64,000 nt of DNA from Clostridia bacterium (GCA_017630915.1 JAGBUH010000253.1:5196-69195); one strand, 5' to 3'. Shown: positions 6,904 through 34,021, counted from the stretch's first letter. The notes: generated by a model not told the origin, from the sequence alone. Program-made: numbers and translations.

Positions 6904-8565
6904 ATGAAAAAATACATTTCTTTTTTTCTCTCGTCAATATTTGTTTTATCGCTTCTCACGATGTCGATTTGCAATGTTTCTGCCGCCACCAATTCGCAAG
7001 GTGTTGAATTTTCGCTCTCCGGCGACCAAACCCATTATATCGTAACAGGTTTCAGCGGAACTTCTACTGCGGTTACAATACCTTCGCAATTCAACGGAAA
7101 ACCCGTCACCAAAATCGGCGAGAGTGCGTTTGAAGATTGTACAACCTTAACAAGCGTTTCTATTCCCGATTCTGTTACCCATATCGGCCCTTATTCTTTT
7201 ACAAACTGCGCCGCAATAAAAAACATCACCATACCCAACTCGGTTATTGAAATCGGTGAATGCGCCTTTTATCTCAGCGGTCTTACCTCCATTTCAATCC
7301 CAGCTTCCGTAACAAAAATTAACGATTCTGCCTTTTTGAGATGTTTTGCAGTTGCAAGCATTACCGTTGCCAACGACAACACTTTATATCACAGCGATGG
7401 TGATTGTTTAATCGAAACGAACTCTAAAACACTTATTTTAGGTTGTAAAAACAGTATAATCCCCTCTAACGGAAGTGTTACCAAAATCGGCAAAACCGCC
7501 TTTTATGAAATCAGCGATATAAAAACAGTTAATATCCCCAACGGCATTACCGAAATCGGCGAAGACGCTTTTTTAAACTGCAAAGGTATTACAAGTGTAA
7601 CTCTCCCGAATTCGCTTAAAACCATTGGCAAAGGCGCGTTTTTCTCCTGCTCGGGTATACAAACCGTTACCTTTGGTAACACCGTTTCAAAAATCGGTGA
7701 TTACGCTTTCCAAGGTTGCACCAACATAACCAATATTACACTTCCCGATTCCGTAACAGACATCGGTTGGGGAACGTTTTACGGTTGTACAAAACTTTTG
7801 AGCGTTAAACTTCCTACCACCTTAGAAGAAATTGATGCAAGCGCATTTGCTAATTGTTCGAATCTTACCACCGTTAACATGCCCGAAAATCTAAAAAAAA
7901 TCGGCGATGATGCATTTTCAAACTGCCCAAAACTCCCCAATGTCACTCTTCCTCAAACTCTCGAAAGCATTGGAGAATACGCATTCAACAACTGTTCTAC
8001 TATTACAGCCATTGAGATCCCCTATACCGTTGAAGAAATAGGCAGATATGCATTTAACAATTGCAACAAACTTGCAGAAATTCGTTGTATGGTCGGCGTT
8101 CAACCCGAAATGTGGGACAACAATTGGCTTAGCGGATGTACAGCAACGGTTACTTGGGGCGATAATTACCAAGCAATTGCAGAATTCAACGCAGTTATAA
8201 ATGCATGTGAATCACTTGACAAAACCGATTATGCCGATGAAGAATGGTCGGCTATTCAAGAGGCGCTTACCAATGCAAAAGCTTATTCCACCAACGGAAA
8301 AACAAGCGACGAAATCAACGCTGAAAAAGCAAAACTCGAAAATGCAATTTTGTCGAATCCCAAACGTTCCGAATTTGGCGATTTAAACGAAGATACGGTC
8401 ATCGATTCGGTTGACTATTTACTTGTCAAACGTGCTTGTTTCGGCACATATACTCTAACCAATATTCAACAAACACGTGCCGATATTGACAGAAGCAATC
8501 AATTAGATTCTACCGACTATTTGCTCTTGAAACGTATCGCATTCGGCACTTTTATCGTTGTTTAG
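6904..8565 (+). CDS. secreted BspA-type leucine-rich-repeat protein with a C-terminal dockerin
   Basis: The signal peptide is MKKYISFFLSSIFVLSLLTMSICNVSA. There are more than 12 repeats of about 23 aa of the form IPxSVTxIGxxAFxxCxxLTSVxLP. The C-terminus carries duplicated Ca-binding segments, DLNEDTVIDSVDYLLVKR and DIDRSNQLDSTDYLLLKR. Confidence 0.85.
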   Translation: MKKYISFFLSSIFVLSLLTMSICNVSAATNSQGVEFSLSGDQTHYIVTGFSGTSTAVTIPSQFNGKPVTKIGESAFEDCTTLTSVSIPDSVTHIGPYSFTNCAAIKNITIPNSVIEIGECAFYLSGLTSISIPASVTKINDSAFLRCFAVASITVANDNTLYHSDGDCLIETNSKTLILGCKNSIIPSNGSVTKIGKTAFYEISDIKTVNIPNGITEIGEDAFLNCKGITSVTLPNSLKTIGKGAFFSCSGIQTVTFGNTVSKIGDYAFQGCTNITNITLPDSVTDIGWGTFYGCTKLLSVKLPTTLEEIDASAFANCSNLTTVNMPENLKKIGDDAFSNCPKLPNVTLPQTLESIGEYAFNNCSTITAIEIPYTVEEIGRYAFNNCNKLAEIRCMVGVQPEMWDNNWLSGCTATVTWGDNYQAIAEFNAVINACESLDKTDYADEEWSAIQEALTNAKAYSTNGKTSDEINAEKAKLENAILSNPKRSEFGDLNEDTVIDSVDYLLVKRACFGTYTLTNIQQTRADIDRSNQLDSTDYLLLKRIAFGTFIVV

Positions 8566-8575
8566 ATTAGATATT

Positions 8576-8604
8576 AAAAATGCTTCCAATTGGGAGCATT
8601 TTTG
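8576..8604 (+). terminator. rho-independent terminator
   Basis: An 8-bp stem (8580..8587 pairs with 8592..8599, one G-U pair) has an AATT loop and is followed by TTTTT. Confidence 0.6.
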
Positions 8605-8686
8605 AATTTTTCTCTTTTTAATCATTTTTAATGTTGAATTTTGGATTTTTTATGAACAAAACGTTGGTTTTTTGTATCCAATACAC

Positions 8687-8715
8687 TTGAAATCAGTTGA
8701 AACTTGTGTTATAGT
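8687..8715 (+). promoter_or_regulatory. candidate promoter of the glycan locus (TTGAAA-17-TATAGT)
   Basis: TTGAAA is at 8687..8692, the spacer is 17 nt and TATAGT is at 8710..8715. It lies in the 174-nt gap after the terminator. Confidence 0.4.
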
Positions 8716-8751: not shown

Positions 8752-9510
8752 ATGGATCTTGGATTAAAGAACAAAAATGTGTTAATAGTGGGTGCCAGTA
8801 AAGGCATCGGGCGAGGAATTGTAAAAGGTTTTGCCGAAGAAAGTGCGAAAATTGTTGCGATAGCGCGTTCCGAAGAACTTTTAAAAGAAGTCGAAAGCGA
8901 AGCTTTACAATCGGGTGCATCTTCTTTCGCTTATGAAGTAAAGGACATTATGGAATGCGATACCCAAAGTTTCGCTGATGAACTTTTACAAAAATACGGC
9001 GTGTTTGACGTTGTTGTTCATAATGTCGGTGGTTCGCTTATCAGCCGTGACCATTTAGGTGGCGCTGATGATTGGAATTACGCTTTGAAATTCAATGCCG
9101 TTGCTGCTATAGATATGAATAGTCGTCTTATTCCTCCGATGATAGAACGCGGGTATGGCAGAGTTATTCATATTTCATCAATTTCTGCGATTATGCTTCG
9201 AGGCAATCCGTTATATGCTTCTGCCAAAGCGTTTTTAAACGCTTACGTAACAACGGTAGGCAGACAGCTTGCTCCGACGGGTGTTGTTTTGTGTTCGGTT
9301 ATGCCCGGCGCCGTTGCTTTTGAAGGCAGCTATTGGGACAAATCCATCAAAGCAGGTGAACCGAAGGTCGAAGATTTTTTACGCCATCATCAAGCGGTTA
9401 ACCGTTTTGGTACCCCCGAAGAAATTGCAAACGCAGTTTTATTTATGGCAAGCGACAAGTCCTCTTTTATGCAAGCGACCAATATCCCGGTTGACGGCGC
9501 TAATATGTAA
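8752..9510 (+). CDS. short-chain dehydrogenase/reductase (SDR)
   Basis: It has the Rossmann motif VGASKGIGRG and the catalytic YASAK motif. The track ORF starts at 8740, but the ATG at 8752 (MDLGLKNKNVLIVG) has a weak GGTG RBS and the usual SDR N-terminal length. The start is uncertain. Confidence 0.85.
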   Translation: MDLGLKNKNVLIVGASKGIGRGIVKGFAEESAKIVAIARSEELLKEVESEALQSGASSFAYEVKDIMECDTQSFADELLQKYGVFDVVVHNVGGSLISRDHLGGADDWNYALKFNAVAAIDMNSRLIPPMIERGYGRVIHISSISAIMLRGNPLYASAKAFLNAYVTTVGRQLAPTGVVLCSVMPGAVAFEGSYWDKSIKAGEPKVEDFLRHHQAVNRFGTPEEIANAVLFMASDKSSFMQATNIPVDGANM

Positions 9511-9519
9511 AGGTGTTTT

Positions 9520-10179
9520 ATGAAAAGAGTTTTTGATTTTACTGTAAGCCTTTTGGGTTTAATAATTCTTTCCCCTATTTTCCTCATACTTGCCCTTATG
9601 ATCGTTATCGATTCGCGTGGCGGTGTTTTCTTCCGCGGAGTTCGTGTAGGCCAACATGGTAAGGACTTCAAAATCTACAAATTTCGCAGTATGCGCCCCG
9701 ATTGCGAGGGCAAGGGAAAATGGAACGTCGGAAATAACGACGACAGAATCACCCGCGTCGGCCACTTTCTCCGCAATACAAAGTTAGACGAACTTCCTCA
9801 ATTGATAAACGTACTTAAAGGTGATATGAGTCTCGTCGGACCGCGGCCTGAATTGAGAGTGTACATAGATATGTACACCGAACGCGAAATGCCGATTCTC
9901 GATTTAAAACCCGGTGTTACCGATTGGGCTTCGATGACAAACTTCGAACAGTTTAAAGGTTTTACAGAAGCCGCAGACCCCGATGAGTATTATTTAAAAG
10001 CGGTCAGACCACTTAAACTCGAATTACAGCTTTATTATCGATATAATAACAGTTTTATCGGAGACTTGAAATGTCTATTTTGGACTGTTTACAAGGTGAT
10101 TACCAGAACGCAGAAACTCCCTGCCGATGTCCAAGCGATTGTTGATAAAAAACGAGCAGAAATGGAAAACACGGTATAA
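9520..10179 (+). CDS. small monotopic polyprenyl-phosphate sugar-phosphate transferase (PglC/WbaP C-terminal type, Bac_transf)
   Basis: 219 aa with one N-terminal hydrophobic hairpin and the motifs KFRSM, DELPQLINVLKGDMSLVGPRP. Confidence 0.9.
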   Translation: MKRVFDFTVSLLGLIILSPIFLILALMIVIDSRGGVFFRGVRVGQHGKDFKIYKFRSMRPDCEGKGKWNVGNNDDRITRVGHFLRNTKLDELPQLINVLKGDMSLVGPRPELRVYIDMYTEREMPILDLKPGVTDWASMTNFEQFKGFTEAADPDEYYLKAVRPLKLELQLYYRYNNSFIGDLKCLFWTVYKVITRTQKLPADVQAIVDKKRAEMENTV

Positions 10180-10207
10180 ATTACAAAGTGTAAAGGAAAT
10201 AATTCAA

Positions 10208-11347
10208 ATGATAAAAACTCTTTTTAGTGAATTTAATCCAAAGGGTCTCATTAAAAGTGATGACAAGCGTTTTCGATATATAGACGTTTTATATGTCATC
10301 GGCATTTTGCTTGTCGTATGGGGACATTCACACCCCATTGATGAAAGTTGGCATGGTACTTGGTATAGTCACTTGAATGGATTCATATATACGTTTCATA
10401 TGCCGTTGTTCTTTTTCATCGGCGGTTACTTAATGGTTTTTTCGCGTAGCGTCGAAGAACTCGGTTATTTCAAATGGGCATTGGGTAAAATATGCAAATT
10501 CCTAGTACCTTATATCGTACTAACCGCACTTGCATACTATCCAAAATCACTTTTGGGCGATACAAGCGACATTGTTTCTTTGAGTTTTGAATATTTTCTA
10601 ACCACTACGTTTTTAATTCCACGTATAGGTGTATGGGGACATTTTTGGTTCATTCCCACGTTTTTAATACTCGATCTCGCTTGGGGTGCTTGGCGTGCTT
10701 GTGTGAAAAAGTCCAATTTTGTGTATCGTGCAGGGCTTATAATTGGTTTTTTAGTTTCTCTCGCACTTGCAATATTCCCTCTTCTTTCTGATTACTTTGT
10801 TCTTTACGATTTGAGCCAAGTTGCATTGTTCTATGCTAGCGGCATTATCACCGCGCTTCTCAAACCTGTTCTGTGGGACAAGCACTGGAAGAATTGGCTT
10901 TGGATTGTTATCGGTGCATTGGGCACATATTTCTTATATCCTTTTGGAAACGCTGCTTTTAGATACACCCCGATTATTGGCGGAGATATGTTTTACCCGT
11001 ACAGCGATCAACCAATTAAATACATTCCTTTTAATAATTTTATCGTTGGCATGTTCCTTGTTTGGGCATGTTGGAATCTTGGGAAGTCACTTTCTGTTTT
11101 CAAATTCACAAAGTCGTCTAAAATAATCACGCAATATAATTTTACGATTTATCTCTACTCATGGCCTATACAGGCGTTTACAGATGTAATTTTACGTCGT
11201 ATAGGTACAAACTGGTTAATAATCATCGCCATTCTTTTTGCGATTGGTTTTATAGTTCCAGCAGCTATTATTTTCATTTATAAAAAAGCAACTTTCTTGC
11301 ATTGCAAATTCATGGATTATCTTATTGGCATCCAAACCACAAAATGA
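10208..11347 (+). CDS. membrane acyltransferase family 3 (glycan O-acylation)
   Basis: Polytopic protein with the motifs RYIDVLYVIGILLVVWGHSH and FHMPLFFFIGGY. I chose the ATG at 10208 because an AAGGAAAT RBS precedes it. The track start at 10127 overlaps the previous gene. Confidence 0.8.
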   Translation: MIKTLFSEFNPKGLIKSDDKRFRYIDVLYVIGILLVVWGHSHPIDESWHGTWYSHLNGFIYTFHMPLFFFIGGYLMVFSRSVEELGYFKWALGKICKFLVPYIVLTALAYYPKSLLGDTSDIVSLSFEYFLTTTFLIPRIGVWGHFWFIPTFLILDLAWGAWRACVKKSNFVYRAGLIIGFLVSLALAIFPLLSDYFVLYDLSQVALFYASGIITALLKPVLWDKHWKNWLWIVIGALGTYFLYPFGNAAFRYTPIIGGDMFYPYSDQPIKYIPFNNFIVGMFLVWACWNLGKSLSVFKFTKSSKIITQYNFTIYLYSWPIQAFTDVILRRIGTNWLIIIAILFAIGFIVPAAIIFIYKKATFLHCKFMDYLIGIQTTK

Positions 11348-11368
11348 TTCAAATGAGGTTAATACAGT

Positions 11369-12307
11369 ATGGACAGCAAACAATTAGCTTGGCTTATACG
11401 ACGACACGGCATTGAAATGACGCATCTTTCGGGCGGAAGCCATATCGGTGCAATTCTTTCTGTCGCTGATATAATGGCAGTACTGTATTCTGATATTTTA
11501 AAATACGACACCACCAATCCCAAATGGTGTGACCGCGACCGTTTTATTTTAAGTAAAGGACATGCAGGAGGTTCGGTATATGCAGCTCTTGCCGAATCGG
11601 GTTTTTTCGCAGTTGACGAATTGAAAACCCACTACCAAAATGGAAGCAGACTCTCCGGTCACGTTTCTCATCATTTACCGGGCGTTGATTTTTCAACCGG
11701 TTCGTTAGGACATGGCTTATCCGCCGGCGTTGGCATGGCACTTGCCGCAAAAAAAGATAAAAAACAACACGAGGTTTTTGTTGTATTAGGCGACGGCGAA
11801 TGTAACGAAGGTTCTGTTTGGGAAGCGGCGCAAACAGCAACTCATTTTGGACTTGACAACCTCATTGCCATTGTTGACAACAACAAAATGCAAAGCCTTG
11901 ATTATTGCGTAAACACACTTGACGCAGGTTCTCTTTATGATAAATGGTTCGCTTTCGGCTGGAATACATTTGTCGTTAATGGGCACGACCATGATGCGCT
12001 TCGCGATAAAATGAATACCATAAAAAACGGCAAACCCACCGTAATAATTGCCGAAACCATCAAAGGCAAGGGCGTTTCCTTTATGGAAGAAGATATTCTT
12101 TGGCATTACCGTTTTCCGCACGATGGTTGGGAATATGACTGTGCAGTAAACGAACTTCACAAAATAAAACCTGATGGCGTACAAGACATTTATACTCCGA
12201 ACGGAATTATAAATCCTAAACTTCCTGATGCTAATGAAATCAATAAAGATATTCACCATACCATGTCCGAAACATATAAACCCACTTGGAACAAGCAGGA
12301 GGCATAA
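11369..12307 (+). CDS. transketolase, N-terminal (TPP-binding) subunit
   Basis: 312 aa with the motifs GGSHIGAILSVADIMAVLY, SKGHAG and GDGECNEGSVWEA, which together form the diphosphate-binding motif of split transketolases. Confidence 0.88.
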   Translation: MDSKQLAWLIRRHGIEMTHLSGGSHIGAILSVADIMAVLYSDILKYDTTNPKWCDRDRFILSKGHAGGSVYAALAESGFFAVDELKTHYQNGSRLSGHVSHHLPGVDFSTGSLGHGLSAGVGMALAAKKDKKQHEVFVVLGDGECNEGSVWEAAQTATHFGLDNLIAIVDNNKMQSLDYCVNTLDAGSLYDKWFAFGWNTFVVNGHDHDALRDKMNTIKNGKPTVIIAETIKGKGVSFMEEDILWHYRFPHDGWEYDCAVNELHKIKPDGVQDIYTPNGIINPKLPDANEINKDIHHTMSETYKPTWNKQEA

Positions 12308-12309
12308 TA

Positions 12310-13230
12310 ATGAGAGATACATTCGTTAAAACACTCATAGAACTTGCCAAAAGCAATCCGAATATTGAGCTTATAACAGGCGACCTTGGTTTTGGTGTAT
12401 TAAAACCTTTTTGGGAAGCATTGCCTGATCAATTCATTAACGCAGGTATCGCAGAGCAAAACATGACTTCCCTTGCGGCAGGAATGTCGTTAGAAGGCAA
12501 AACCGTTTTCACATATTCTATTGGTAATTTCCCTACACTACGATGTGTTGAACAAATCAGAAACGACTGCGCATATCACAATGCTAACGTTAAAATCGTT
12601 TGCATAGGCGGCGGTTTTGTTTACGGTTCGCTCGGCATGAGCCACCAAGCAACCGAAGATATTGCTATAATGCGTGCGCTCCCCGATGTTGCTGTATTTG
12701 CGCCATGCGATTCTTTTGAAACGGTCGCTGTAACAAAAGCTATCGCCGAATATCACGGTACGTGTTATCTTCGTCTTGGCAGGGGCGGCGAAAAGCCGAT
12801 CCATAACGGACCGCTTAACGATTTTAAAATTGGCAAAGCTATTAAAATATCCGATGGCGAACGCGTTGCTATATTTTCAACTGGCGCTATATGCGATGAA
12901 ATACTTCAAGCACGCGAAGAATTAAAGTCCAATGGAATCAATCCTGCTGTATATACCTTCCCCACCGTCAAGCCACTTGACAAAGATACTATTATCGATG
13001 TGGCAAATAAATACGATGTTATCGTCACTTGCGAAGAACACAATACCATCGGCGGATTTGGAAGCGCAGTAGCCGAGGTTATTTCGGAATTTGATCATAA
13101 AGCACGCTTACTAAAAATCGGAGTTCCTGATTGTTATTCCACTTATGTTGGAAATCAAAAATACCTTCGCGGACAGTTCGGTTTAGACGGAAAAAGTATC
13201 TCAAAAAAGATTTTGGATGCAATAAAATGA
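12310..13230 (+). CDS. transketolase, C-terminal (pyrimidine-binding) subunit
   Basis: The motifs FINAGIAEQNMTSLAAGMS and GMSHQATEDIAIMR are present. The ATG at 12310 is preceded by a GGAGG RBS, and the track start at 12286 overlaps the previous gene. Confidence 0.88.
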   Translation: MRDTFVKTLIELAKSNPNIELITGDLGFGVLKPFWEALPDQFINAGIAEQNMTSLAAGMSLEGKTVFTYSIGNFPTLRCVEQIRNDCAYHNANVKIVCIGGGFVYGSLGMSHQATEDIAIMRALPDVAVFAPCDSFETVAVTKAIAEYHGTCYLRLGRGGEKPIHNGPLNDFKIGKAIKISDGERVAIFSTGAICDEILQAREELKSNGINPAVYTFPTVKPLDKDTIIDVANKYDVIVTCEEHNTIGGFGSAVAEVISEFDHKARLLKIGVPDCYSTYVGNQKYLRGQFGLDGKSISKKILDAIK

Positions 13231-14318
13231 AGATTTTGATTTTAGCAAATCATTTTAATACTTTACGCATTTTCAGGCGAGAATTGATCAAAGCAATTTC
13301 GCAAAACGGTCATGATGTTGTTATTTCTATCCCCAATTGCGACGATGAAAACAAACAAATTTTAGAATCATACGGTAGCCGTGTCGTTTTTACCGATTTT
13401 GAAAGAAGAGGAATGAACCCTCTTAAAGATTTGAAGTTATTACGCGAATACAAACGCTTAATCAAAGAGGAACACCCCGATAAAATTATAGCATACACAA
13501 TAAAATGCAACATTTACGGCGGTTTTGCATGTCAATCTTTAAAAATCCCTCATTATGCGAATGTCACAGGGTTAGGTTCTACTTTTCAAGAACAAAATTT
13601 AACAAGAAAAATCGTTTCTTTTCTTTATAAGTTCTCTCTCAAAAAGTCAAAACGCGTTTTCTTTGAAAACGAGGGCAACAAAAATACGTTGGTGAACGAC
13701 AAAATAATCAAAGTTGATCAAGCCGTTGTTATGCCCGGTGCAGGCGTTAACTTGAAAGAATTTGCACCTGTTGCCTACCCTACCGATAAACAACCTATTC
13801 GTTTCCTTTTCGTTGGGCGAATCATGCGTGAAAAGGGTGTTGACGAATATTTCGAAGCTATTAAAAGAATCAAATCAGAATATCCGTATGCAGCATTTGA
13901 TTTTATTGGTTGGTACGAAGATAATTACGAAGCAGCCGTTAAGCAATTGGAGCAAGAGAACTTAATCAAATTCCACGGTTTCCAATCAGATGTAAAACCG
14001 TTTATAGAACAAGCGCATTGTGTCGTACTGCCATCTTGGCATGAAGGCATGTCAAATACCCTGCTTGAATCAGCCGCCATGTGCAGACCTCTTATCACAA
14101 CCAACATTCACGGTTGTAAAGAGTCTGTAACAGACGGCGAAAACGGTTTATTAACCGAACCGAGAAATAGCGCAAGTTTGTACTCGGCACTCAAACGGTT
14201 TATTCAGATGTCCCAACAAGAAAGAATACAAATGGGGTTAAACGGAAGAAAGCACATGGAAGAATCCTTTGATAAAGACATGGTCGTGGAACTAACTTTA
14301 AAAGAAATTTTCGATTAA
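13227..14318 (+). CDS. glycosyltransferase family 4 (GT-B)
   Basis: The sequence starts MKILILANHF and carries the EX7E-type block EGMSNTLLESAAMCRPLITT. An ATGA overlap with the transketolase stop sets the start at 13227. Confidence 0.85.
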   Translation: MKILILANHFNTLRIFRRELIKAISQNGHDVVISIPNCDDENKQILESYGSRVVFTDFERRGMNPLKDLKLLREYKRLIKEEHPDKIIAYTIKCNIYGGFACQSLKIPHYANVTGLGSTFQEQNLTRKIVSFLYKFSLKKSKRVFFENEGNKNTLVNDKIIKVDQAVVMPGAGVNLKEFAPVAYPTDKQPIRFLFVGRIMREKGVDEYFEAIKRIKSEYPYAAFDFIGWYEDNYEAAVKQLEQENLIKFHGFQSDVKPFIEQAHCVVLPSWHEGMSNTLLESAAMCRPLITTNIHGCKESVTDGENGLLTEPRNSASLYSALKRFIQMSQQERIQMGLNGRKHMEESFDKDMVVELTLKEIFD

Positions 14319-14338: not shown

Positions 14339-15445
14339 ATGATAAAACTCATGATACTCTTAGCAGTATCAATGTGCTTGGCGTATTGTTCTCAGCACGG
14401 CATATTGGTAGTTCCGCTCACAAAAAAACGAAAACTCGATATTCCTATCATAATTATTATTATCATGTTAAGTCTGTTAATCGGACTTCGAACGCACTAC
14501 GACGACACTCAAAACTATATTACAATGTTCATGGATTCGCCTACCGTTTCAGAATATCATGATTCTTCGCCAGGCTTTTTTTCAAACCCATTGTTTTATT
14601 ATTTACAGAGTTTTTTTAGACACAACGTAATGGATAATCACCACTTATTCTTTACAGTCGTAGCATTTTTCACTATTTCGTGTATCATCTGGTTTATAGC
14701 TAAATATTCGTCAAATTTCCCATTCAGCATCCTTTTGTTTTTCTGTATCGGCATGGTATTAGTTCCAATGTCTGCAATGAAGCAAGGCTTGGCGATCGCA
14801 GTAAGTTTAATAGGTATTGACCAATTGTTAAAAAAAAGATATATAGTGTATTATCTTTTACTAACTATAGCCATTCTTTTCCACGCATACGCTATAATGT
14901 TGATTGTTTTGCCATTATTTATAGGGCGACCTTGGACAATTTTTACATACGTTATTATTGGTGCCGTAATTATTGTTCTGTTCACTTTTGAATCAACAAT
15001 CACGAGTTTTTTATCCGTCGCTGAAGACGCGGGCAAAAGCTTAAACGAAGAAGTTTTATTGGATTCACAAGGCATAAACGTATTTCGATTAGCTGTTTTT
15101 GCCGTCCCACCCATACTTTCGTTCCTGTTTCTAGAACTCCTAAATCCTTCTTACAATAAAAATCGTCATTTGTTTATGAATATGAGCATACTCAGTTTTT
15201 TAATAATGTGTATGGGGATATTTAGCGCGGCCACTTTATTTGGAAGAAGTGCCGTTTATTTTGAAATAGGTACTATTTTGATTCTGCCTTGGGTAGTTGA
15301 AGAAATGTTCAACAAAGAATCCCGCGGTGCCGCATTTGTCATCGTGGGCAGTTGTTATTTACTCTTTTTTGCATATATGGTCAAAGACTTCTCATATGCA
15401 TATAGGTCTATTGATATTGTAGAATTTGTTAGATCCATAATATAG
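14339..15445 (+). CDS. EpsG-family polytopic membrane protein (Wzy-like polymerase candidate)
   Basis: 368 aa with more than 10 hydrophobic segments. GLRTHYDDTQNYITMF resembles the R..G.D...Y motif of the EpsG family. Confidence 0.6.
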   Translation: MIKLMILLAVSMCLAYCSQHGILVVPLTKKRKLDIPIIIIIIMLSLLIGLRTHYDDTQNYITMFMDSPTVSEYHDSSPGFFSNPLFYYLQSFFRHNVMDNHHLFFTVVAFFTISCIIWFIAKYSSNFPFSILLFFCIGMVLVPMSAMKQGLAIAVSLIGIDQLLKKRYIVYYLLLTIAILFHAYAIMLIVLPLFIGRPWTIFTYVIIGAVIIVLFTFESTITSFLSVAEDAGKSLNEEVLLDSQGINVFRLAVFAVPPILSFLFLELLNPSYNKNRHLFMNMSILSFLIMCMGIFSAATLFGRSAVYFEIGTILILPWVVEEMFNKESRGAAFVIVGSCYLLFFAYMVKDFSYAYRSIDIVEFVRSII

Positions 15446-21617: not shown

Positions 21618-22634
21618 ATGAAATTTTCTGTAATACTTCCTGCGTTTAACGCCGAAAATACCATTAGAAAAACTCTTTTAAGTTTAATTGGACAAACACA
21701 TCAAAACTTCGAAGTTATAATTATCGATGACGGCTCTACCGATAATACACGTTTAATTTGCGAAGAATTCACTAGTTCTGATAATCGATTTGTATACATA
21801 TTCCAACCCAATTCTGGCGTTTCTAAAGCGCGAAACAATGGAATTGAACACGCTAACGGAGATTACCTTGCTTTTATAGATAGCGATGATGCCTATCATC
21901 CTGATTATTTGTCCGAATTCGTTCGATTGATTGATGGTAATCCCGAATGCGATAATTTCTGGTGCGAATATAATACAATAATTTCAACTGAAACAACGCA
22001 ATCGTATCTTAACGAACATACTGACAATACAGTACGGTATTCCAATCGCAAACAAATAATGACATTACATTCCAATGTCTTAGACGCTGCGCTTTGGAAT
22101 AAGGTTTTCAAAATTGATATTGTCAAAAACAATCGCATTAAAATGCCAGAACATATTTCATTAGGCGAAGACTTAATTTTCAATTTTAGGTTCTTGGATC
22201 ATACTCGCGATAAAATAGCAATTATAAACAAGCCACTTTATAACTATACCAAATCAGTTGACGGTTCGTTGGACAGCAAGTATCACGATAACCTAAAAGA
22301 GATTTATGATTATATCGATAGCGAATTGTTATTTTACTTGAAAAAATGGGATATTTCGGATGAGCAAATGGTGCTTTTCTATAATAGCGTTTTATTCGCG
22401 CAAGAACGTATCCTAAATAATACCTTTCGCCCACAATCTAAATTGTCATATTTTCAAAAAATCAAATACAACAAATCCATATTAAAGAGTTGCAAATTCA
22501 AAGAAGCGTTACTAAAATCAAATTGCGATATTCACCCTGCGTATAAATTCGCTTATAGAATAGCCTCTTGGCATTTGATCAAATTTCTAAATTATTTCTC
22601 ACGGATCAAAAAAATCTTCAAGGATAAATTATGA
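21618..22634 (+). CDS. glycosyltransferase family 2
   Basis: It has SVILPAFNAENTIRKTLLSLIGQTHQNFEVIIIDDGSTDNT and FIDSDDAY. Confidence 0.88.
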   Translation: MKFSVILPAFNAENTIRKTLLSLIGQTHQNFEVIIIDDGSTDNTRLICEEFTSSDNRFVYIFQPNSGVSKARNNGIEHANGDYLAFIDSDDAYHPDYLSEFVRLIDGNPECDNFWCEYNTIISTETTQSYLNEHTDNTVRYSNRKQIMTLHSNVLDAALWNKVFKIDIVKNNRIKMPEHISLGEDLIFNFRFLDHTRDKIAIINKPLYNYTKSVDGSLDSKYHDNLKEIYDYIDSELLFYLKKWDISDEQMVLFYNSVLFAQERILNNTFRPQSKLSYFQKIKYNKSILKSCKFKEALLKSNCDIHPAYKFAYRIASWHLIKFLNYFSRIKKIFKDKL

Positions 22635-23413
22635 ATCTTTTAAAATCAATACAATCTCGAATCATACAACCGTTTCAGCAGAAACATTTTGAATTAACCA
22701 AATATGGCAAGAACATCAAGTTATACGAAAATAAATTCAAAGGCAAACGTTGCTTTATTGTCGCAAACGGACCGAGTTTGCACCCAAACGACTTAGATTT
22801 ACTTCACGATAGGAACGAAATAACATTTGGAATGAACAGAATATATAAAATGTTCGAGCAAACAAAATGGCGTCCTACATTTTATGTATGCGAAGATGAG
22901 TTAATTATAAAAGAGAAACAAACCGAAATCAACGCAATCCCGACAAAAGAAAAATTCATTCCTATTGAATTAAACTGGTGGCACGGAGTTAACGTCACGG
23001 ATGCGTTATATTTCCATCTCAACTATAAAGACGAGGAACGCTTCCCCTTCAGTTTTTCACCCGATATTGCGCATCAAATCGAATGCAGAGGCACAGTCAC
23101 ATTCACATGTATGCAAATTGCCGCATATATGGGTTTTTCGGAGATTTATTTGCTTGGTGTAGACCATAATTATCAAAAAACGATTGATATTGACGGCAAC
23201 GTAGTGTTTGATCCGAATGCCAAGGATTACTTTTGTGAAGGTTATGACACCGACATAAAAGATATCGCAATTCATGATATGGGTAATAATACTCGCGCTT
23301 ATATGGATGCGAAAAAATATTGTGACGAAACTAATAAATCTAAAATTTTCAACGCAACGCGCGGCGGCAAACTTGAAGTTTTCCAAAGAGTTGATTTTGA
23401 CACATTGTTTTGA
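22631..23413 (+). CDS. DUF115 / MptE-like protein (Maf- and GT42-sialyltransferase-like fold); candidate CMP-sugar-acid transferase
   Basis: 260 aa. KGKRCFIVANGPSLHPNDLDLL...ITFGMNRIY resembles the GNGPSL nucleotide-sugar motif of Cst-type and Maf proteins, and YLLGVDHNY is the second conserved block. The start overlaps the upstream stop in an ATGA. Confidence 0.6.
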   Translation: MNLLKSIQSRIIQPFQQKHFELTKYGKNIKLYENKFKGKRCFIVANGPSLHPNDLDLLHDRNEITFGMNRIYKMFEQTKWRPTFYVCEDELIIKEKQTEINAIPTKEKFIPIELNWWHGVNVTDALYFHLNYKDEERFPFSFSPDIAHQIECRGTVTFTCMQIAAYMGFSEIYLLGVDHNYQKTIDIDGNVVFDPNAKDYFCEGYDTDIKDIAIHDMGNNTRAYMDAKKYCDETNKSKIFNATRGGKLEVFQRVDFDTLF

Positions 23414-23427
23414 AAAGGGGTATCAAA

Positions 23428-24285
23428 ATGGAAGAAAACACAAACAAGCAATATCACACGCACATAACATCAAAACACAAATTGTTTTCTCTTAACCTAA
23501 AAGAAGTTTGGCAATACAAAGACCTTATTGTATTGTTTACTAAAAGGTCCTTTACACTTACATACAAACAAACGGTTCTCGGTCCGGCGTGGATATTTTT
23601 AAACCCGTTAATAAGCGGTTTGATCTATGCTTTTGTGTTCGGCGGAATCGCAGGTATTGGAACCGATGGTGTCCCTGCAATATTGTTTTATTTAACAAGT
23701 AATGCGGTTTGGACGTTCTTTGCAGCGTGTGTGAATAAAAATGCGAGTACTTTTACTTCAAATGCAGGTGTTTTTGGTAAGGTTTACTTTCCTCGTTTAA
23801 CCACACCGATATCCAACGTGCTTTCATCGATAATACAGTTTGGCATACAGATATTATTAGTATTAGGCTTTTTAATTTATTATCTTGCCGTTGGCGAAGT
23901 TTCCCCCAATTGGATAGCCTGGATTTTTATTCCTATTGAAATTGTTCATTTGGGTTTGCTTGGACTTGGTGTTGGCATTATTATTTCTAGTCTTACTACT
24001 AAATATCGCGATTTAACCGTACTTGTAACCTTTGGTGTTCAACTTTGGATGTATATTACACCGATTGTCTACCCTATGTCACAACTCAATATGGGCTTGA
24101 TGAAAACCATTCTTATGATCAACCCTGTTACTGCACCCGTTGAAGCGATTAGATATGCAATTCTCGGTCAGGGAACTATCATGCCTATTTATCTTGTAAT
24201 CTCATGGGTTTTAACCATCGCAGTTACCATGTTCGGAATTATGATCTTTAACAAAGTTGAAAAAACCTTTATGGATACGGTCTGA
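23428..24285 (+). CDS. ABC-2 type polysaccharide/teichoic-acid exporter permease (Wzm/TagG-like)
   Basis: Six hydrophobic segments, and it sits next to a Wzt/TagH-type ATPase. I chose the ATG at 23428 because an AAGGGG RBS precedes it; the track start at 23410 is a TTG overlapping the upstream stop. Confidence 0.85.
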   Translation: MEENTNKQYHTHITSKHKLFSLNLKEVWQYKDLIVLFTKRSFTLTYKQTVLGPAWIFLNPLISGLIYAFVFGGIAGIGTDGVPAILFYLTSNAVWTFFAACVNKNASTFTSNAGVFGKVYFPRLTTPISNVLSSIIQFGIQILLVLGFLIYYLAVGEVSPNWIAWIFIPIEIVHLGLLGLGVGIIISSLTTKYRDLTVLVTFGVQLWMYITPIVYPMSQLNMGLMKTILMINPVTAPVEAIRYAILGQGTIMPIYLVISWVLTIAVTMFGIMIFNKVEKTFMDTV

Positions 24286-24294
24286 GGTGTAGTT

Positions 24295-25614
24295 ATGAGT
24301 GAACAAAGTACTAATCGAGAAATAGCAATAAAGCTTTCCAGTGTCAAAAAACAATACAAACTCGGTCAAATTGGTGGTGGCACGCTAACTGCAGATTTAC
24401 AAAGTTGGTGGGCTCGCAGACGCGGAAAAGAAGATCCCAATACAAAAATTGGTCAAGACCAACGTTTAATCGGACAAACCTTTATGGCATTAAACGGTAT
24501 TGATTTGACCGTTTATAAAGGCGAAGCGTTAGGCATCATAGGCGGAAACGGTGCAGGCAAAAGTACTATGTTAAAACTTTTAAGCCGCGTTACCGCCCCC
24601 ACCGAAGGCGAAATAGATATTTACGGTCGTATCACTTCTATGCTCGAAGTCGGCACAGGTTTCAACGGCGAACTGACCGGCCGAGAAAACGTGTATATGA
24701 ATGGCGCAATTTTAGGCATGACTAAAGCCGAAATTGATGCAAAAATGGAAGATATCATCGAGTTTTCAGAAGTTCGCGAATTTATTGATACTCCCGTAAA
24801 GCGTTATTCTTCGGGCATGTATGTTAAACTCGCATTCTCTATCGCCGCACACCTCGATTCTGAAATAATGATCATGGACGAGGTCTTGGCAGTCGGTGAT
24901 ATGGCATTTCAAAAGAAATGTCTTGATAAAATGCGCGAGGTCGCAAAGAAAGAAGGGCGAACCGTTCTATACGTTTCACATAACATGAACACCATTCGCC
25001 AGCTTTGCGATAGATGTGTTGTTTTAGAACAAGGAAAAGTTGTTTTTGAGGGGAATGTTGAGGAGGCAATAACTATATATTTAAACAAAACCGACGACGA
25101 ATTCTCTTGTTTAAATGATTTATCAAAACGAGATAGACCCAAAAGTTCAACCAACAAAGCTTTTATGCAGCAAATTGCATTTCTTAACAAAACCAAAGCG
25201 GTATGCACAAGAGGCGAGTTCTTAAAGATTAAACTTGATTGGATTGCAAAGGCAAATTTATCTGATGTCAAATTTCGAATGATTGTTCGATATAGAGATG
25301 ACTCTCCTGTTGGACTAGTTCAATCGGAAAGTTTAGGCAATTTTTCCGTTGACGAAACACAAATAACAAATCTTGAATTTGATACCAGTATGCTTGCGGA
25401 AGGAAAATACTTTTTCAGCATCGCGCTATTTCAAAGTGACGAAGTTGGAAATAGTGTCATTTTAGACCACGTTACACGCGCTTGTAGTATAGAAATATTA
25501 AATAATACTGAAGATAAGAAAATATTAAACTGGGAACATCGTTGGTGGGGTTCTATTAGATTTCCCAGCTTGAAAATTCTAAATCAAGGATTTATTAAAG
25601 ATGGAAATCATTAA
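24295..25614 (+). CDS. ABC exporter ATPase (Wzt/TagH-like) with a C-terminal beta-rich extension of about 175 aa
   Basis: Walker A is GGNGAGKST, the signature is YSSGMYVKLAF and Walker B is IMIMDEVLAVGD. Residues from about 265 to 439 extend beyond the nucleotide-binding domain, like the Wzt C-terminal glycan-binding domain. Confidence 0.88.
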   Translation: MSEQSTNREIAIKLSSVKKQYKLGQIGGGTLTADLQSWWARRRGKEDPNTKIGQDQRLIGQTFMALNGIDLTVYKGEALGIIGGNGAGKSTMLKLLSRVTAPTEGEIDIYGRITSMLEVGTGFNGELTGRENVYMNGAILGMTKAEIDAKMEDIIEFSEVREFIDTPVKRYSSGMYVKLAFSIAAHLDSEIMIMDEVLAVGDMAFQKKCLDKMREVAKKEGRTVLYVSHNMNTIRQLCDRCVVLEQGKVVFEGNVEEAITIYLNKTDDEFSCLNDLSKRDRPKSSTNKAFMQQIAFLNKTKAVCTRGEFLKIKLDWIAKANLSDVKFRMIVRYRDDSPVGLVQSESLGNFSVDETQITNLEFDTSMLAEGKYFFSIALFQSDEVGNSVILDHVTRACSIEILNNTEDKKILNWEHRWWGSIRFPSLKILNQGFIKDGNH

Positions 25615-26866
25615 ACTGATTAATATACAAAAAAAAGAACATACTCTTGAATATGAGTTCACTACTACAGAAGGTTTAAGGAAATACTTTTCTGGTAAAC
25701 CTTTTAGAATCGAATATACATTTTCTGTAGAATCCATTCCTAATTCTATAGCGGCAGTTCCTTTTGTGTGTAATGTTTTGCCTATAATATGGTTAACAAA
25801 TTCCGTGTTAGAATTAAATGAATTGGACAAGGCCTTTTATGACAGTATACCACAATTCAAACAAGGATATGTTGAAATGTTTCCAGAATGCAATTTTCTT
25901 GGAATTATTTCAGTTAAGTCTTTAGTTGAATGCGATATCCCTTCTACAGAAAAATCCGCCACCTTCTTTTCTGGCGGTCTTGATGCAGTAAATACATTGG
26001 TAATGCATTTGGATGAGAAGCCCGCGCTCATATCAATTTGGGGGTCTGATATCAAGTACGAAAATGCATCTGGTTGGAAAGTTGTTCATGATGAAATATC
26101 CAAAACTGCAAAATTGTATAATCTTAACGATATCGTAATTAGAAGCACATTTCGCGAATTCGACAATGAATACGAACTAGAAAACACAATAAAAATCAAC
26201 TGGTGGCACGACTTAAAGCATGGAATAGGTTTGTTAGGGCACGCAGCTCCATATGTATATGAACAGGGAATATCAAAATTGTATATTGCATCGTCAAACT
26301 GTCCACTAGATAAAGATATCAAGTGCGCATCTCATCCAACAATTGATAATCATGTTCGTTTTGCTCACACAAAAGTAGTTCATGATGGATATGAATATAG
26401 TCGTCAAGACAAAGCACATAATGTAGTTGAATATTCCAAGAAAAGTGGAGAAAAAGTTTCATTACACGTATGTTGGAAAACGCAAACCGGTAACAATTGT
26501 TGCAAGTGCGAAAAATGTTATCGAACGATGCTCGGTATAATTTCCGAGGGTGCGGATCCGGTGGATTTCGGTTTTTTTGAAGCACCCACTTATATACCTA
26601 ATTGCCGTCAATTTCTTATTGGTAAAAGAAATTTGGAAACAAGTATTGCTAAACGGCATTGGACACATATACATAATGCATTTGTAAATAATTTGAAAGT
26701 AATAAAAAAAACGCCATATTGGAAACATGTCAAATGGATCTATAAAAGTGATTTTTCACACCCTGAAACACTAAACATGCCCCCCAAATCATTACGAGAA
26801 TGGCTATCCCGACAAAAGTTTTATCAAAAACTTCACGACATAAAAATTAACATGAAAAAATCATAA
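25601..26866 (+). CDS. uncharacterised protein with a QueC-like PP-loop and a Cys4 cluster
   Basis: 421 aa. The PP-loop-like motif FFSGGLDAVNT is at aa 122-132. The cysteine cluster VCWKTQTGNNCCKCEKCYRTMLG (aa 290-312) aligns by eye with the QueC Zn motif C[YW]..G..CG.C..C..R..G. The ATG lies 14 nt inside the wzt 3' end. Confidence 0.45.
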   Translation: MEIIKLINIQKKEHTLEYEFTTTEGLRKYFSGKPFRIEYTFSVESIPNSIAAVPFVCNVLPIIWLTNSVLELNELDKAFYDSIPQFKQGYVEMFPECNFLGIISVKSLVECDIPSTEKSATFFSGGLDAVNTLVMHLDEKPALISIWGSDIKYENASGWKVVHDEISKTAKLYNLNDIVIRSTFREFDNEYELENTIKINWWHDLKHGIGLLGHAAPYVYEQGISKLYIASSNCPLDKDIKCASHPTIDNHVRFAHTKVVHDGYEYSRQDKAHNVVEYSKKSGEKVSLHVCWKTQTGNNCCKCEKCYRTMLGIISEGADPVDFGFFEAPTYIPNCRQFLIGKRNLETSIAKRHWTHIHNAFVNNLKVIKKTPYWKHVKWIYKSDFSHPETLNMPPKSLREWLSRQKFYQKLHDIKINMKKS

Positions 26867-26876
26867 AGGCGTATAT

Positions 26877-27968
26877 ATGAGAATGAGTAAAGATTTTTTA
26901 TTGCCGCTCCGAAAGCTTCATGGTTATATCCATGAACAAAAGATGTTTCTCAATGAACAAAGAAAAATCAAAAAAAAGTACACCGCTTTGATTAAATCAA
27001 AATTCGGCCATAACCCCCGATGCGTTTTTTTAGTTTTAACGCCCGAACATGATAACATGGGTGACCACGCCATTGCTTATGCAGAAACTAGAATACTTAA
27101 TTCTGCAAATATTGACTATATTGAAATAAGCGGTCAGGAATTAGAGCTTCTGCAATCATATCGCTTGCTGAATATTATGAATGGAAGACCTATTTTGATA
27201 AACGGCGGCGGTAATCTAGGGTCAATTTGGTTTAACATCGAACAGTTAATACGTGATGTTATTATAAGAAACCCTAAATCTTCCATTGCAATTCTTCCCA
27301 ATACAATTTATTATGAAAATAATGATTTTGGAAAATCCGAATTTCTAAAATCACAGGATATTTATGATCATCATAATAATCTCCTATTATATGCTAGGGA
27401 ACAAGTTTCATACAATATCATGAAATCAGCATATAAAAATGTTAAGTTAATTCCCGATGTTGTATTATCTCTTGACATGTCAGATAACAAAATAGATCGT
27501 GACGGGTGTCTTCTATGTTTGAGACACGATCGTGAAAAAACACTAACTGATATGGATGAAGATATTATTATCCGTCAAGTAGAGAGAATGTTCGGAAACA
27601 ATTATACACGCACCGACACGTGTATTGGTGTTTATATTTCAAAAGATAATCGAGGTGTTGAATTAAGTAAAAAAATTCAACAGTTCAAATCAGCCGAACT
27701 TGTTATAACCGACCGCCTCCACGGTATGATTTTTGCAGCGATAACAGGTACACCTTGTATATTAATCGACAGTAAAAGCCCAAAAATCAAAGGGTGTTAT
27801 GAATGGTTAAAGACTTTAGAGTATATACATTTTGTCAACGATATATCACAAATCAACGACATATATAAATCCATACCAAAACGCGAGTATAACTACAACA
27901 ACGAACATTTGAAACCCTATTTTGACATCCTGATACAAGATATTTCTAATATATTAGAGGGAATTTAA
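26877..27968 (+). CDS. polysaccharide pyruvyltransferase family protein (copy 1)
   Basis: It has LTPEHDNMGDHAIAYAE, ILINGGGNLGSIW and ITDRLHGMIFAAITGTPCILI, which are typical of the WcaK/CsaB/EpsO family. Confidence 0.8.
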   Translation: MRMSKDFLLPLRKLHGYIHEQKMFLNEQRKIKKKYTALIKSKFGHNPRCVFLVLTPEHDNMGDHAIAYAETRILNSANIDYIEISGQELELLQSYRLLNIMNGRPILINGGGNLGSIWFNIEQLIRDVIIRNPKSSIAILPNTIYYENNDFGKSEFLKSQDIYDHHNNLLLYAREQVSYNIMKSAYKNVKLIPDVVLSLDMSDNKIDRDGCLLCLRHDREKTLTDMDEDIIIRQVERMFGNNYTRTDTCIGVYISKDNRGVELSKKIQQFKSAELVITDRLHGMIFAAITGTPCILIDSKSPKIKGCYEWLKTLEYIHFVNDISQINDIYKSIPKREYNYNNEHLKPYFDILIQDISNILEGI

Positions 27969-30183: not shown

Positions 30184-30241
30184 TTTGTTTTTCTTTTGTG
30201 TTCGATTTATATTAATACTTAGTTATATAGAGGGGATATAT

Positions 30242-32347: not shown

Positions 32348-33367
32348 ATGTCGACTAACATCAAACCCAAAATAAGCATAATCGTTCCCGTTTATAATGT
32401 CGAAAAGTACATTCACAAATGTGTTCAAAGTATTTTAGCGCAAACTTTCACAGATTATGAACTGATACTTGTTGACGACGAAAGCCCCGACACCTGCCCT
32501 GCTATATGTGACGAATATGCTACAAAGTATGAGTTTATAAAAGTTGTGCATAAAAAGAACGGCGGTCTTGCTTCCGCAAGAAACGCCGGAATGAAAATTG
32601 CATCGGGTAAATTCATTATGTTTTTCGATAGTGACGACTATGTTAGTAGCGACACTTGTCAACTAATGTACGATGCAATTTCAAAGAATCCAACTGCATG
32701 GGTTCTATCAAATATTCACCGTGTAAACGAAAACGATGAATACGTATCCGGTCTTGATGAAAATCAAGCACTTGAAATATTCAACCAATGCCCCACATAC
32801 TTTGGCGCTTTCAAAATGTCTTTATCTGGTAGCGTTTGTAATAAAATTTACAATATGGATATTATACGCGAGAACAATCTTTGGTTTGACGAAAGTGTAC
32901 GTTTTGGAGAAGATGTTCCTTTTGATTCTCCATATTGCCAACTTTGCTCTGACATTGTATTTTTACCTACGCCTTTGTATTTTTATCGCGTTGTTGATGG
33001 TAGTTTAACACATACTTATCATGCGGATCACCTGGGTGTTTATATTAAGTTGTTTGGAATTCGTTTACCTTTGATTAAAGATGAAGAAATTCCCAAGTTT
33101 TGTGATACATATTTTTATTACTTTACCGACTTGATGAAGAACACCCATGATAAAAGAAATCCGATGTCATTTTTCGAAAAAATGAGATATAATCACAAAA
33201 TGATGAATACAAAAGAGTTTATATTTTGTGCCGAAAATACAACAGGAAATAATGACAGTCCTTTATATATGCGTATTACAAGAATGCATAATTACTATTT
33301 ATTTTGGTTGTTTTTAAAACTGTGCGATATAAAGCAATTATTATTTCGTGACATAGGAGAACAATAA
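32348..33367 (+). CDS. glycosyltransferase family 2
   Basis: It has SIIVPVYNVEKYIHKCVQSILAQTFTDYELILVDDESPDTCP and FFDSDDYV. The start is either 32348 or 32336; neither has a strong RBS. Confidence 0.85.
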   Translation: MSTNIKPKISIIVPVYNVEKYIHKCVQSILAQTFTDYELILVDDESPDTCPAICDEYATKYEFIKVVHKKNGGLASARNAGMKIASGKFIMFFDSDDYVSSDTCQLMYDAISKNPTAWVLSNIHRVNENDEYVSGLDENQALEIFNQCPTYFGAFKMSLSGSVCNKIYNMDIIRENNLWFDESVRFGEDVPFDSPYCQLCSDIVFLPTPLYFYRVVDGSLTHTYHADHLGVYIKLFGIRLPLIKDEEIPKFCDTYFYYFTDLMKNTHDKRNPMSFFEKMRYNHKMMNTKEFIFCAENTTGNNDSPLYMRITRMHNYYLFWLFLKLCDIKQLLFRDIGEQ

Positions 33368-34011: not shown

Positions 34012-34021
34012 GGAGTAACTT

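Follow-up and report, generated by a model that had tools for sequence, protein, structure and literature searches.

A conserved cassette of split transketolase, phosphoglycosyl transferase, and carbonyl reductase at the head of a surface-glycan locus in a Clostridia bacterium

The stretch of Clostridia bacterium DNA studied here (GCA_017630915.1, JAGBUH010000253.1:5196-69195; 64,000 nucleotides, hereafter the window, with positions counted from its first letter) carries a surface-glycan locus whose first genes include a transketolase (TK) divided into two subunits. A short-chain dehydrogenase/reductase (SDR), a phosphoglycosyl transferase (PGT), an AT3 acyltransferase, the diphosphate-binding TK subunit (TKN), and the pyrimidine-binding TK subunit (TKC) are encoded in this order on the plus strand, as a preliminary description of the sequence had proposed, and each has a strong Pfam match. 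We conclude that this pair is very probably a dedicated, noncanonical TK that acts with the reductase in glycan synthesis. The five genes, the signals upstream of them, and the family 4 glycosyltransferase (GT4) that follows are as listed.

8574..8605, plus strand: terminator-like hairpin, a 14-pair stem followed by a T run (shuffle mean, 0.1)
8687..8715, plus strand: promoter-like site, TTGAAA-17-TATAGT with an upstream TG, 10/12 consensus matches
8752..9510, plus strand: classical SDR, 252 amino acids (aa) (Pfam adh_short_C2, E value 2.6e-37)
9520..10179, plus strand: small monotopic PGT, Bac_transf, 219 aa (Pfam E value 3.4e-58)
10208..11347, plus strand: AT3 membrane acyltransferase (Acyl_transf_3, 5.1e-29; open reading frame [ORF] from 10127)
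11369..12307, plus strand: TKN, diphosphate-binding subunit, 312 aa (Transketolase_N, 1.3e-44)
12310..13230, plus strand: TKC, pyrimidine-binding and C-terminal domains, 306 aa (Transket_pyr, 1.3e-26; Transketolase_C, 2.4e-26)
13227..14318, plus strand: GT4 (Glyco_trans_4_2 and Glycos_transf_1)

The hairpin at 8574-8605 closes the upstream leucine-rich-repeat/dockerin gene and forms the upstream boundary of the locus. Given this hairpin and the promoter-like site directly upstream, 8752 onward is the operon head, and the SDR gene is the start of a long glycan operon; the site at 8687-8715 is a consensus match only, a scan of the region having returned one such site against a shuffle mean of 2.2. 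The mechanical ORF call for the SDR begins at 8740, and the start at 8752 is plausible because orthologues are 252 to 253 aa long. The first ATG of the AT3 ORF (10127) overlaps the PGT gene by 53 nucleotides (nt), and a start near 10208 is more likely. TKN and TKC are separated by 2 nt, and TKC has its own ribosome-binding site (AGGAGG, 8 nt 5' of the ATG at 12310; the mechanical call used TTG 12286). Through an ATGA overlap at 13227-13230, which had been noticed at the outset and is present, GT4 is translationally coupled to TKC and is probably second among the transferases of the pathway.

Motifs predict the PGT to be the priming enzyme, acting on undecaprenyl phosphate. It has the DE dyad and the PRP motif (motif definitions, PMC10186338) and matches PglC (1e-29) and WbaP (3e-25). 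A PGT of the di-N-acetylbacillosamine type was ruled out, as the GLLLP motif is missing, and nothing positive could be assigned as its substrate from published motifs.

Judged by fold and architecture, TKN and TKC form a split-gene TK that departs from canonical TKs in two substrate-site features. Both cofactor motifs noted earlier are found in the translations, GDGECNEGSVWEA...VDNN in TKN (the thiamine diphosphate [ThDP]/metal motif GDG...N) and AEQNMTSLAAG, with its AEQN, in TKC. In the alpha2-beta2 assembly of such an enzyme, the active site is located between subunits. In an alignment of 41 orthologous TKN and TKC pairs with Escherichia coli TktA and the split TK of Carboxydothermus hydrogenoformans (E. 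coli numbering is used throughout), the metal ligands Asp155 and Asn185, the cofactor-activating Glu411, the donor histidines His26, His66, His100, His261, and His473, and the phosphate-binding Arg358 and Arg520 are invariant across the 41 pairs (His261 was placed by hand, at an invariant LWHY). Three replacements are found in 41/41 pairs: Gln118 is His (GSLGHG instead of GSLGQG in TKN), Glu468-Asp469 is Ser-Leu (GEDGxxH becomes GSLGMSH), and His461 is Gly, which leaves the full canonical phosphate set (Arg358, Ser385, His461, and Arg520) incomplete. The polar loop after position 385 is replaced by a hydrophobic GFGV in these pairs; position 385 itself is ambiguous in the alignment, where the Thr of TGDLGFGV stands. 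TKN is also extended at its C terminus by a conserved stretch of about 45 aa (RFPHxGWEY...YTPxG), missing in ordinary split TKs of about 275 aa.

These positions have assigned roles in canonical TKs. Arg358, Ser385, His461, and Arg520 bind phosphate, and His26, His100, His261, Asp469, and His473 recognize sugar hydroxyls; Asp469 reads the 2-hydroxyl of the acceptor and is needed for stereoselection and efficient catalysis (PMC11387542). Replacement of Asp469 opens the site to nonhydroxylated and aromatic acceptors (PMC5073344). Position 100 is Phe in DXS (PMC7661550), so the retained His100 leads us to expect a TK-type hydroxylated C2 donor, pyruvate being unlikely. Position 118 varies together with the Asp in full-length relatives, which lack the latter where 118 is His or Met and retain it where 118 is Gln; a survey of 186 sequences, made up of the 41 orthologues, the nearest representatives, and references, found His118 in 133. 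Three other identities were rejected. A DXS-like enzyme, which would be a single chain with pyruvate as the donor, is excluded by the invariant His100 and by the score of TKC on the dxs model (160.8 bits, with a cutoff of 466, against 183.1 on a TK model). YerE-like enzymes have TPP_enzyme_N, M, and C domains in one chain of about 560 to 640 aa, and the pair instead has Transketolase_N plus Transket_pyr/Transketolase_C and only a weak partial TPP_enzyme_C match (4.3e-5). An AviB-type E1 alpha subunit is likewise out, with E1_dh (PF00676) at 8.2e-9 versus Transketolase_N at 1.3e-44.

The TK pair stands apart from housekeeping split TKs. A protein search over 5.8 billion sequences with TKN returned at least 120 protein clusters at 68 to 100% identity, nearly always 308 to 338 aa long versus about 275 aa in ordinary split N subunits. 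The match at 100%, P0001, is a protein from a Clostridia bacterium MAG. In a library clustered at 50% identity, the family has one full-length representative, P0121 (64%, 428 bits), beyond which other split TKs drop to at most 288 bits and at most 53% identity. Placed by this gap, the pair belongs to a discrete clade of its own. The survey of position 118 points to a broad noncanonical TK class, within which the PGT-linked family is a tight subfamily. Scanning a single genome for each species gave 52 TK loci (56 to 83% identity), with clostridial carriers in Lachnospiraceae, Oscillospiraceae, Acutalibacteraceae, and Ruminococcaceae and Bacteroidales carriers in Bacteroides stercorirosoris DSM 26884, Muribaculaceae, and Salinivirgaceae. 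One metagenome-assembled genome (MAG), JAIKVY01 (isolate RUI414), has the module twice, on separate contigs (L021 and L025), in each case as PGT, aldo-keto reductase (AKR), TKN, and TKC.

The gene context is conserved as well. Loci were fetched with 10-kb flanks; 52 genome loci entered the synteny counts, 44 of them with at least 2.5 kb upstream, and partners were sought within 4.5 kb. TKC follows TKN in 46/46 loci, and a PGT and a reductase lie no more than 4.5 kb upstream of TKN in 40/44, all from different species. Three contexts from a protein-to-contig index have the same run of reductase, Bac_transf, TKN, TKC, and GT4, followed by differing glycan genes. The reductase is an SDR in 7 loci, a nonhomologous AKR in 34, and both in 1, and two layouts recur: SDR, A-type PGT, optional AT3, TKN, TKC; and B-type PGT, AKR, optional AT3, TKN, TKC. 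AT3 is thus an optional insert between PGT/reductase and TK (7/44 loci). A GT4 lies downstream of the TK in 17/38 loci, and a PglF/CapD-like UDP-N-acetylglucosamine (UDP-GlcNAc) 4,6-dehydratase heads the module in 8/44. SDR-type and AKR-type loci are intermixed on the TK tree; since the two reductases are swapped and yet intermixed, a carbonyl reductase as such seems to be required. All-against-all clustering of 54 loci found no nucleotidyltransferase, kinase, phosphotransferase, or other sugar-synthesis gene conserved with the module. In the compact locus L002, the sugar-modifying enzymes are a PglF-like dehydratase, the SDR, and the TK only, and in the deltaproteobacterial L057 the TK pair directly follows DegT and a PglF-like dehydratase. 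Two loci (L048 and L069) have both reductase/PGT versions in tandem, PGT-AKR and then SDR-PGT-TKN-TKC. A literature search on TKs with surface-glycan or PGT loci found no publication describing the cassette, which is widespread and uncharacterized in gut and rumen bacteria.

The pairing of reductase and TK extends beyond the PGT-linked loci. In a metagenome scan with the SDR as the query, orthologues of at least 66% identity always lay in SDR-PGT-TKN-TKC, with or without AT3, where the contig was long enough, and none was seen without the TK. SDR homologues at 35 to 42% identity (L078, L079, and L082 to L086) adjoin split TKs in clusters with no PGT; these clusters also encode radical SAM/SPASM proteins, TylF and FkbM methyltransferases, a nucleotide-sugar-type C-methyltransferase, an epimerase/dehydratase, a GT2 glycosyltransferase, and an ABC transporter. 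Such a distribution of homologues indicates that the SDR-TK pairing is older than the link to the PGT, and the TKs of these distant pairs likewise lack Glu468-Asp469 and His461. The nearest nonorthologous relatives of TKN include fusions to a sugar C-methyltransferase (P0133 and P0135), to FkbM methyltransferases, and to GNAT; in P0207, the fusion partner is a dTDP-glucose-4,6-dehydratase/UXS-like domain, and the gene lies in a Wzx/Wzy glycan locus (L143, 10001-18723), with TKC and then a GT2 adjoining. L143 has in addition a nearby set of UbiA, DprE1-like, and SDR (DprE2-like) genes, typical of lipid-linked d-arabinofuranose synthesis. The environmental L078 (1-12750) combines an AviB-type E1 alpha/beta pair with radical SAM/SPASM, a TylF methyltransferase, an epimerase/dehydratase, a sugar C-methyltransferase, an SDR, a split TK, a GT2, and a YfhO-like protein, that is, two different ThDP-dependent C2-transfer systems within one sugar-tailoring cluster.

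The SDR itself has the catalytic YxxxK motif (YASAK), a Lys in its glycine motif (GASKGIG), and an Arg after strand 2 (AIARS). Under the SDR classification rule, Lys and Arg at these places mark a preference for NADPH, and the predicted cofactor is NADP(H). AKRs are typically NADPH reductases.

Our best reading, which we hold tentatively, is that the TK moves a two-carbon ketol unit off a ketose phosphate and onto a nucleotide sugar in keto or aldehydo form, after which the new ketone is reduced. Together with AT3 where present, and usually also a GT4, the SDR, PGT, TKN, and TKC would constitute a conserved initiation module of surface-glycan loci. TKN and TKC would assemble into a ThDP enzyme that forms the dihydroxyethyl-ThDP (glycolaldehyde) carbanion from ordinary ketose phosphates such as xylulose 5-phosphate or fructose 6-phosphate. 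In its rebuilt acceptor pocket, this carbanion would attack the carbonyl of an activated sugar and not that of an aldose phosphate. PglF-like dehydratases, the fusions, and the sugar-tailoring clusters are the contexts that point to a keto nucleotide sugar as the acceptor, most likely a UDP/NDP-4-keto-6-deoxy-hexose (or its N-acetylated form) or a related keto or aldehydo nucleotide sugar; where a locus has a PglF-like gene (L002 and L057), the simplest candidate is UDP-4-keto-6-deoxy-N-acetylhexosamine (UDP-4-keto-6-deoxy-HexNAc). The TK product would be a sugar with a hydroxyacetyl branch or extension, the side-chain ketone of which the NADPH-type reductase (the SDR here, an AKR in most loci) would turn into a 1,2-dihydroxyethyl group, and the modified nucleotide sugar would be used early in assembly, by the adjoining PGT or the GT4. 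A partner ketoreductase, SDR or AKR, is expected of ThDP systems that branch nucleotide sugars, and one is found in 40/44 loci. Hydroxyacetyl transfer to UDP-4-keto-6-deoxy-HexNAc and ketoreduction may yield 4-C-(1,2-dihydroxyethyl)-6-deoxy-HexNAc. It is possible, although we consider it rather unlikely, that the cassette makes an undescribed C-branched sugar of this sort as the reducing-end sugar of the capsules of many gut and rumen Clostridia and Bacteroidales. The preliminary description had suggested that the TK supplies an unusual precursor, and its version with a branched nucleotide sugar reduced by the SDR fits the evidence best, whereas its other version, a product that feeds a downstream pyruvate aldolase, is not supported (see below).

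Several observations weigh against nucleotide-sugar branching. Within the fetched 10 kb, 36/44 loci have no dehydratase, and no enzyme that would make the acceptor carbonyl belongs to the conserved core, so that most loci would depend on an acceptor-making gene located elsewhere in the genome. The retained Arg358 and Arg520 fit a small phosphorylated acceptor equally well. The reductases resemble small-molecule NADPH carbonyl reductases (the SDR is FabG/sorbose-reductase-like and the AKR IolS/YhdN/methylglyoxal-reductase-like) and are unlike the extended SDRs usual for nucleotide sugars. The P0207 fusion was seen once and may be a gene-calling artifact. In the close relative L008, where TKN is 79% identical, the TK pair occurs without SDR or PGT and TKN directly follows TMEM164 (9078-10939), and in two Ruminococcus contigs an orphan TK pair lies outside any glycan locus. 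We know of no cassette carrier with an established glycan structure and of no in vitro proof that any TK branches a sugar. In the two Ruminococcus contigs (L039, 5808-7726), the neighbors of the orphan pair are a PAP2 phosphatase, a d-Ala-d-Ala carboxypeptidase, and SpoIIE.

A source of the acceptor within the downstream genes was also considered. In L004 (13009-15308) and eight similar loci, TviB/TviC-like genes follow GT4, and these correspond to a UDP-GlcNAc 6-dehydrogenase and a UDP-GlcNAcA 4-epimerase. This UGDH-type dehydrogenase and epimerase were rejected as the acceptor source, because as TviB/TviC-like enzymes (UDP-GalNAcA) they serve the second sugar, which is probably N-acetylgalactosaminuronic acid (GalNAcA) in these loci.

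Of the alternatives, the one that survives best is the supply of a small precursor, in which the TK makes an unusual ketose phosphate (for example, from an aldehyde without a 2-hydroxyl) and the reductase converts it into an alditol phosphate or rare sugar phosphate that is built into the glycan. TK action followed by ketoreduction is simple chemistry, the phosphate binders Arg358 and Arg520 are invariant, and both types of reductase look like enzymes for ketoses or small carbonyl compounds, among them sorbose reductase, IolS, and l-glyceraldehyde-3-phosphate reductase. We nevertheless regard this as unlikely. With no conserved nucleotidyltransferase, kinase, or phosphotransferase, the genes of the module could not activate or transfer such a product; the relatives of the TK sit among nucleotide-sugar tailoring enzymes; and His461 is lost. 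The route through an alditol phosphate and CDP-alditol in particular was rejected, since the clustering of the 54 loci showed no conserved nucleotidyltransferase.

Somewhat less likely still is that the cassette consists of two separate units, the reductase and PGT making and transferring an ordinary reduced 6-deoxy-HexNAc (N-acetylquinovosamine or N-acetylfucosamine, following the logic of WreV/WreQ/WreU) and an unrelated TK serving a later sugar or substituent, such as a glycolyl/hydroxyacetyl decoration made with GT4 by Rif15-like C-O chemistry. L008 retains TK, GT4, and EpsG without SDR and PGT, the PGT type tracks the reductase type (A type with SDR, B type with AKR), and the order of PglF-like, SDR, and PGT genes in L002 mimics dehydratase/reductase/PGT pathways; Rif15, moreover, is evidence that TKs can form C-O bonds. 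This separation is at odds with the SDR homologues at 35 to 42% identity that adjoin split TKs in PGT-free loci and with SDR orthologues never being found without the TK. Rif15-type chemistry requires a redox-active quinone acceptor, and the known 4-ketoreductases of UDP-6-deoxy-HexNAc are extended SDRs.

The aldolase link proposed in the preliminary description, in which a downstream HMGL-type pyruvate aldolase would take the TK product, an aldehyde or ketose, as its acceptor and a CMP-activated ulosonic acid would result, we consider improbable. It concerns a recurring set of four genes, which encode an MptE/Maf-like protein (PF01973), a CTP_transf_3 cytidylyltransferase, a 529-aa HMGL-like (DRE-TIM) aldolase, and a KdsC-type phosphatase.

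22631-23413 and 33367-36081: the four-gene set in the window, also present in L140, L141, and L142

The set resembles a pathway for making a CMP-activated 3-deoxy-2-ulosonic acid in which a pyruvate aldolase, not KdsA or NeuB, is the synthase, and the HMGL-like aldolase family is both large and strongly conserved (58 to 93% identity over 120 clusters). Both modules occur in the window locus and in an independent locus, L142 (aldolase, 61% identical), an aldolase homologue lies just upstream of the SDR in L064, and co-occurrence of the two modules is suggested for two close relatives. As a general rule, however, the link finds no support. An aldolase lies within about 10 kb downstream in 0/31 TK loci, although the 22 kb between the two modules in the window exceeds the 10-kb flanks; the complete short locus L002 ends without an aldolase; L141 (Lacrimispora) has an aldolase cassette with its own partners and no TK within 10 kb upstream; and the constant partners of the TK are a PGT and a reductase, not an aldolase. 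Since the aldolase travels with CTP_transf_3, the KdsC-type phosphatase, and the MptE/Maf-like protein, its cassette is a self-contained module, and an occasional link to the TK may exist in the lineage of the window or in L142. Beside the HMGL cassette of L141 (15121-20325; Lacrimispora algidixylanolytica) stands a YerE-like ThDP enzyme (TPP_enzyme_N/M/C, 644 aa), accompanied by an epimerase/dehydratase, a sugar C-methyltransferase, and a Zn-dependent alcohol dehydrogenase; this set is a candidate for a pathway to a branched sugar in a relative of Clostridium that is available in culture.

That a housekeeping split TK came to lie in the glycan locus by chance is extremely improbable and was rejected: the nearest solved structure belongs to a genuine split TK, that of C. 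hydrogenoformans (E values of 2e-63 and 3e-58), the window has no other tkt, and the cofactor and donor residues are all intact, but the pair forms a discrete clade across a gap from 64% to at most 53% identity, keeps its PGT and reductase context in 40/44 species, occurs in two phyla, in both Bacteroidales and Clostridia at 62 to 83% identity, is present in two copies in one MAG (L021 and L025), and has the acceptor residues Asp469 and His461 replaced in 41/41 pairs, in agreement with the dedication to the glycan locus originally suggested.

If branching of a nucleotide sugar by this enzyme is real, it would be the first TK shown to do so and a natural ketone-accepting TK outside actinomycete antibiotic pathways. 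A large unannotated family (at least 120 clusters and more than 50 species-level genomes) would then represent a new route to branched or chain-extended sugars in the glycans of commensals. The first sugar of many capsule types would be identified, which bears on host recognition, phage receptors, and glycan annotation, and the database label "transketolase" would be wrongly placing the family in pentose-phosphate reconstructions of MAGs. Biocatalysis would gain a natural TK that accepts ketones or nonhydroxylated carbonyls; none has yet been characterized, according to a 2025 review.

The remainder of the locus is that of a complex surface polysaccharide. Downstream genes encode EpsG, many GT2 and GT4 enzymes, an MptE-like protein, Wzm/Wzt, and two polysaccharide pyruvyl transferases (26877-27968 and 30185-31315), with the set of CTP_transf_3, HMGL-like aldolase, and KdsC-like phosphatase at 33.4-36.1 kb. 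Neither a second tkt nor a PglF-like dehydratase was found in the window. EpsG, a Wzy-like polymerase, shares the locus with a Wzm/Wzt ABC exporter bearing a Wzt_C domain (14339-15445 and 23410-25614), a combination that may reflect two assembly routes or two fused loci; a Wzx flippase was not seen in the window locus, and the close relative L001 carries Polysacc_synt (Wzx) instead. The ORF directly 3' of Wzt (25601-26866, 421 aa) has no Pfam or NCBIfam match. Directly upstream of the locus, a BspA-type leucine-rich-repeat protein with a type I dockerin (6904-8565) suggests a cellulosome-bearing, fiber-degrading host from the rumen or gut.

Among known enzymes, the split TK of C. hydrogenoformans (PDB 6YAK/6YAJ; PMC7661550) is the best structural match, with E values of 2e-63 and 3e-58 for the two subunits. 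As in that enzyme, the N subunit encoded in the window comprises the diphosphate-binding domain and the C subunit the pyrimidine-binding and C-terminal domains, with every donor histidine and the motifs for ThDP and metal in place. The two differ at GSLGQG, His461, and GEDGASH, which are GSLGHG, Gly461, and GSLGMSH in the window pair, and at the loop SKSTKT, which is the hydrophobic GFGV; the window TKN has the additional C-terminal extension of about 45 aa. One belongs to central metabolism and the other lies in a glycan locus. YerE/YerF (yersiniose) and AviB1/AviB2 (alpha-KADH2) resemble what is proposed for the window system in the ThDP-dependent addition of a C2 unit to a nucleotide-activated keto sugar, often followed by ketoreduction of the branch, and YerE acts in O-antigen biosynthesis. 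However, YerE, with a decarboxylase fold, and AviB, which is E1_dh, come from other ThDP superfamilies than the window pair. Their donor is pyruvate, which gives an acetyl or hydroxyethyl branch, whereas His100, His26, and His261 of the window pair predict a hydroxylated glycolaldehyde unit.

Closer parallels are found among split TKs of natural-product pathways. Rif15a/b of rifamycin biosynthesis is a proven split TK that uses xylulose 5-phosphate, fructose 6-phosphate, or sedoheptulose 7-phosphate as the C2 donor and attacks a ketone (PMC6002545). By description, the window pair shares with it adjacent or overlapping genes and a specialized pathway and would share ketose-phosphate donors and a ketone, not an aldose phosphate, as the acceptor; the Rif15 acceptor is a naphthoquinone and its product a C-O ester formed after rearrangement, whereas the window pair is placed in glycan assembly with a reductase as its partner. 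For miharamycin and amipurimycin, split TKs as yet unproven in vitro have been proposed to attach the hydroxyacetyl branch to a keto sugar, and 13 further split-TK candidates have been listed, with all known candidates coming from Streptomycetes (PMC12247030). The chemistry proposed for the miharamycin and amipurimycin enzymes (transfer of a hydroxyacetyl unit by ThDP to a keto sugar, with an oxidoreductase as the partner) is that proposed here for the window family. The settings differ, being actinomycete nucleoside-antibiotic clusters in the one case and, in the other, polysaccharide loci of gut and rumen Clostridia and Bacteroidales, beside a PGT. PtxB5/6 of phosphonothrixin biosynthesis, said to have been described by Zhu et al. 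(JACS, 2022) and Bown et al. (J Bacteriol, 2023), is reportedly an actinobacterial split TK homologue that forms a C-C bond to a ketone to give a tertiary alcohol and works on a phosphonate substrate with a second ThDP enzyme that provides the C2 unit from pyruvate; from this description, it resembles the window pair as a split TK-family enzyme and the function proposed for that pair in forming a bond to a ketone. The function proposed for the window pair is closest to that of the natural-product split TKs that act on ketones.

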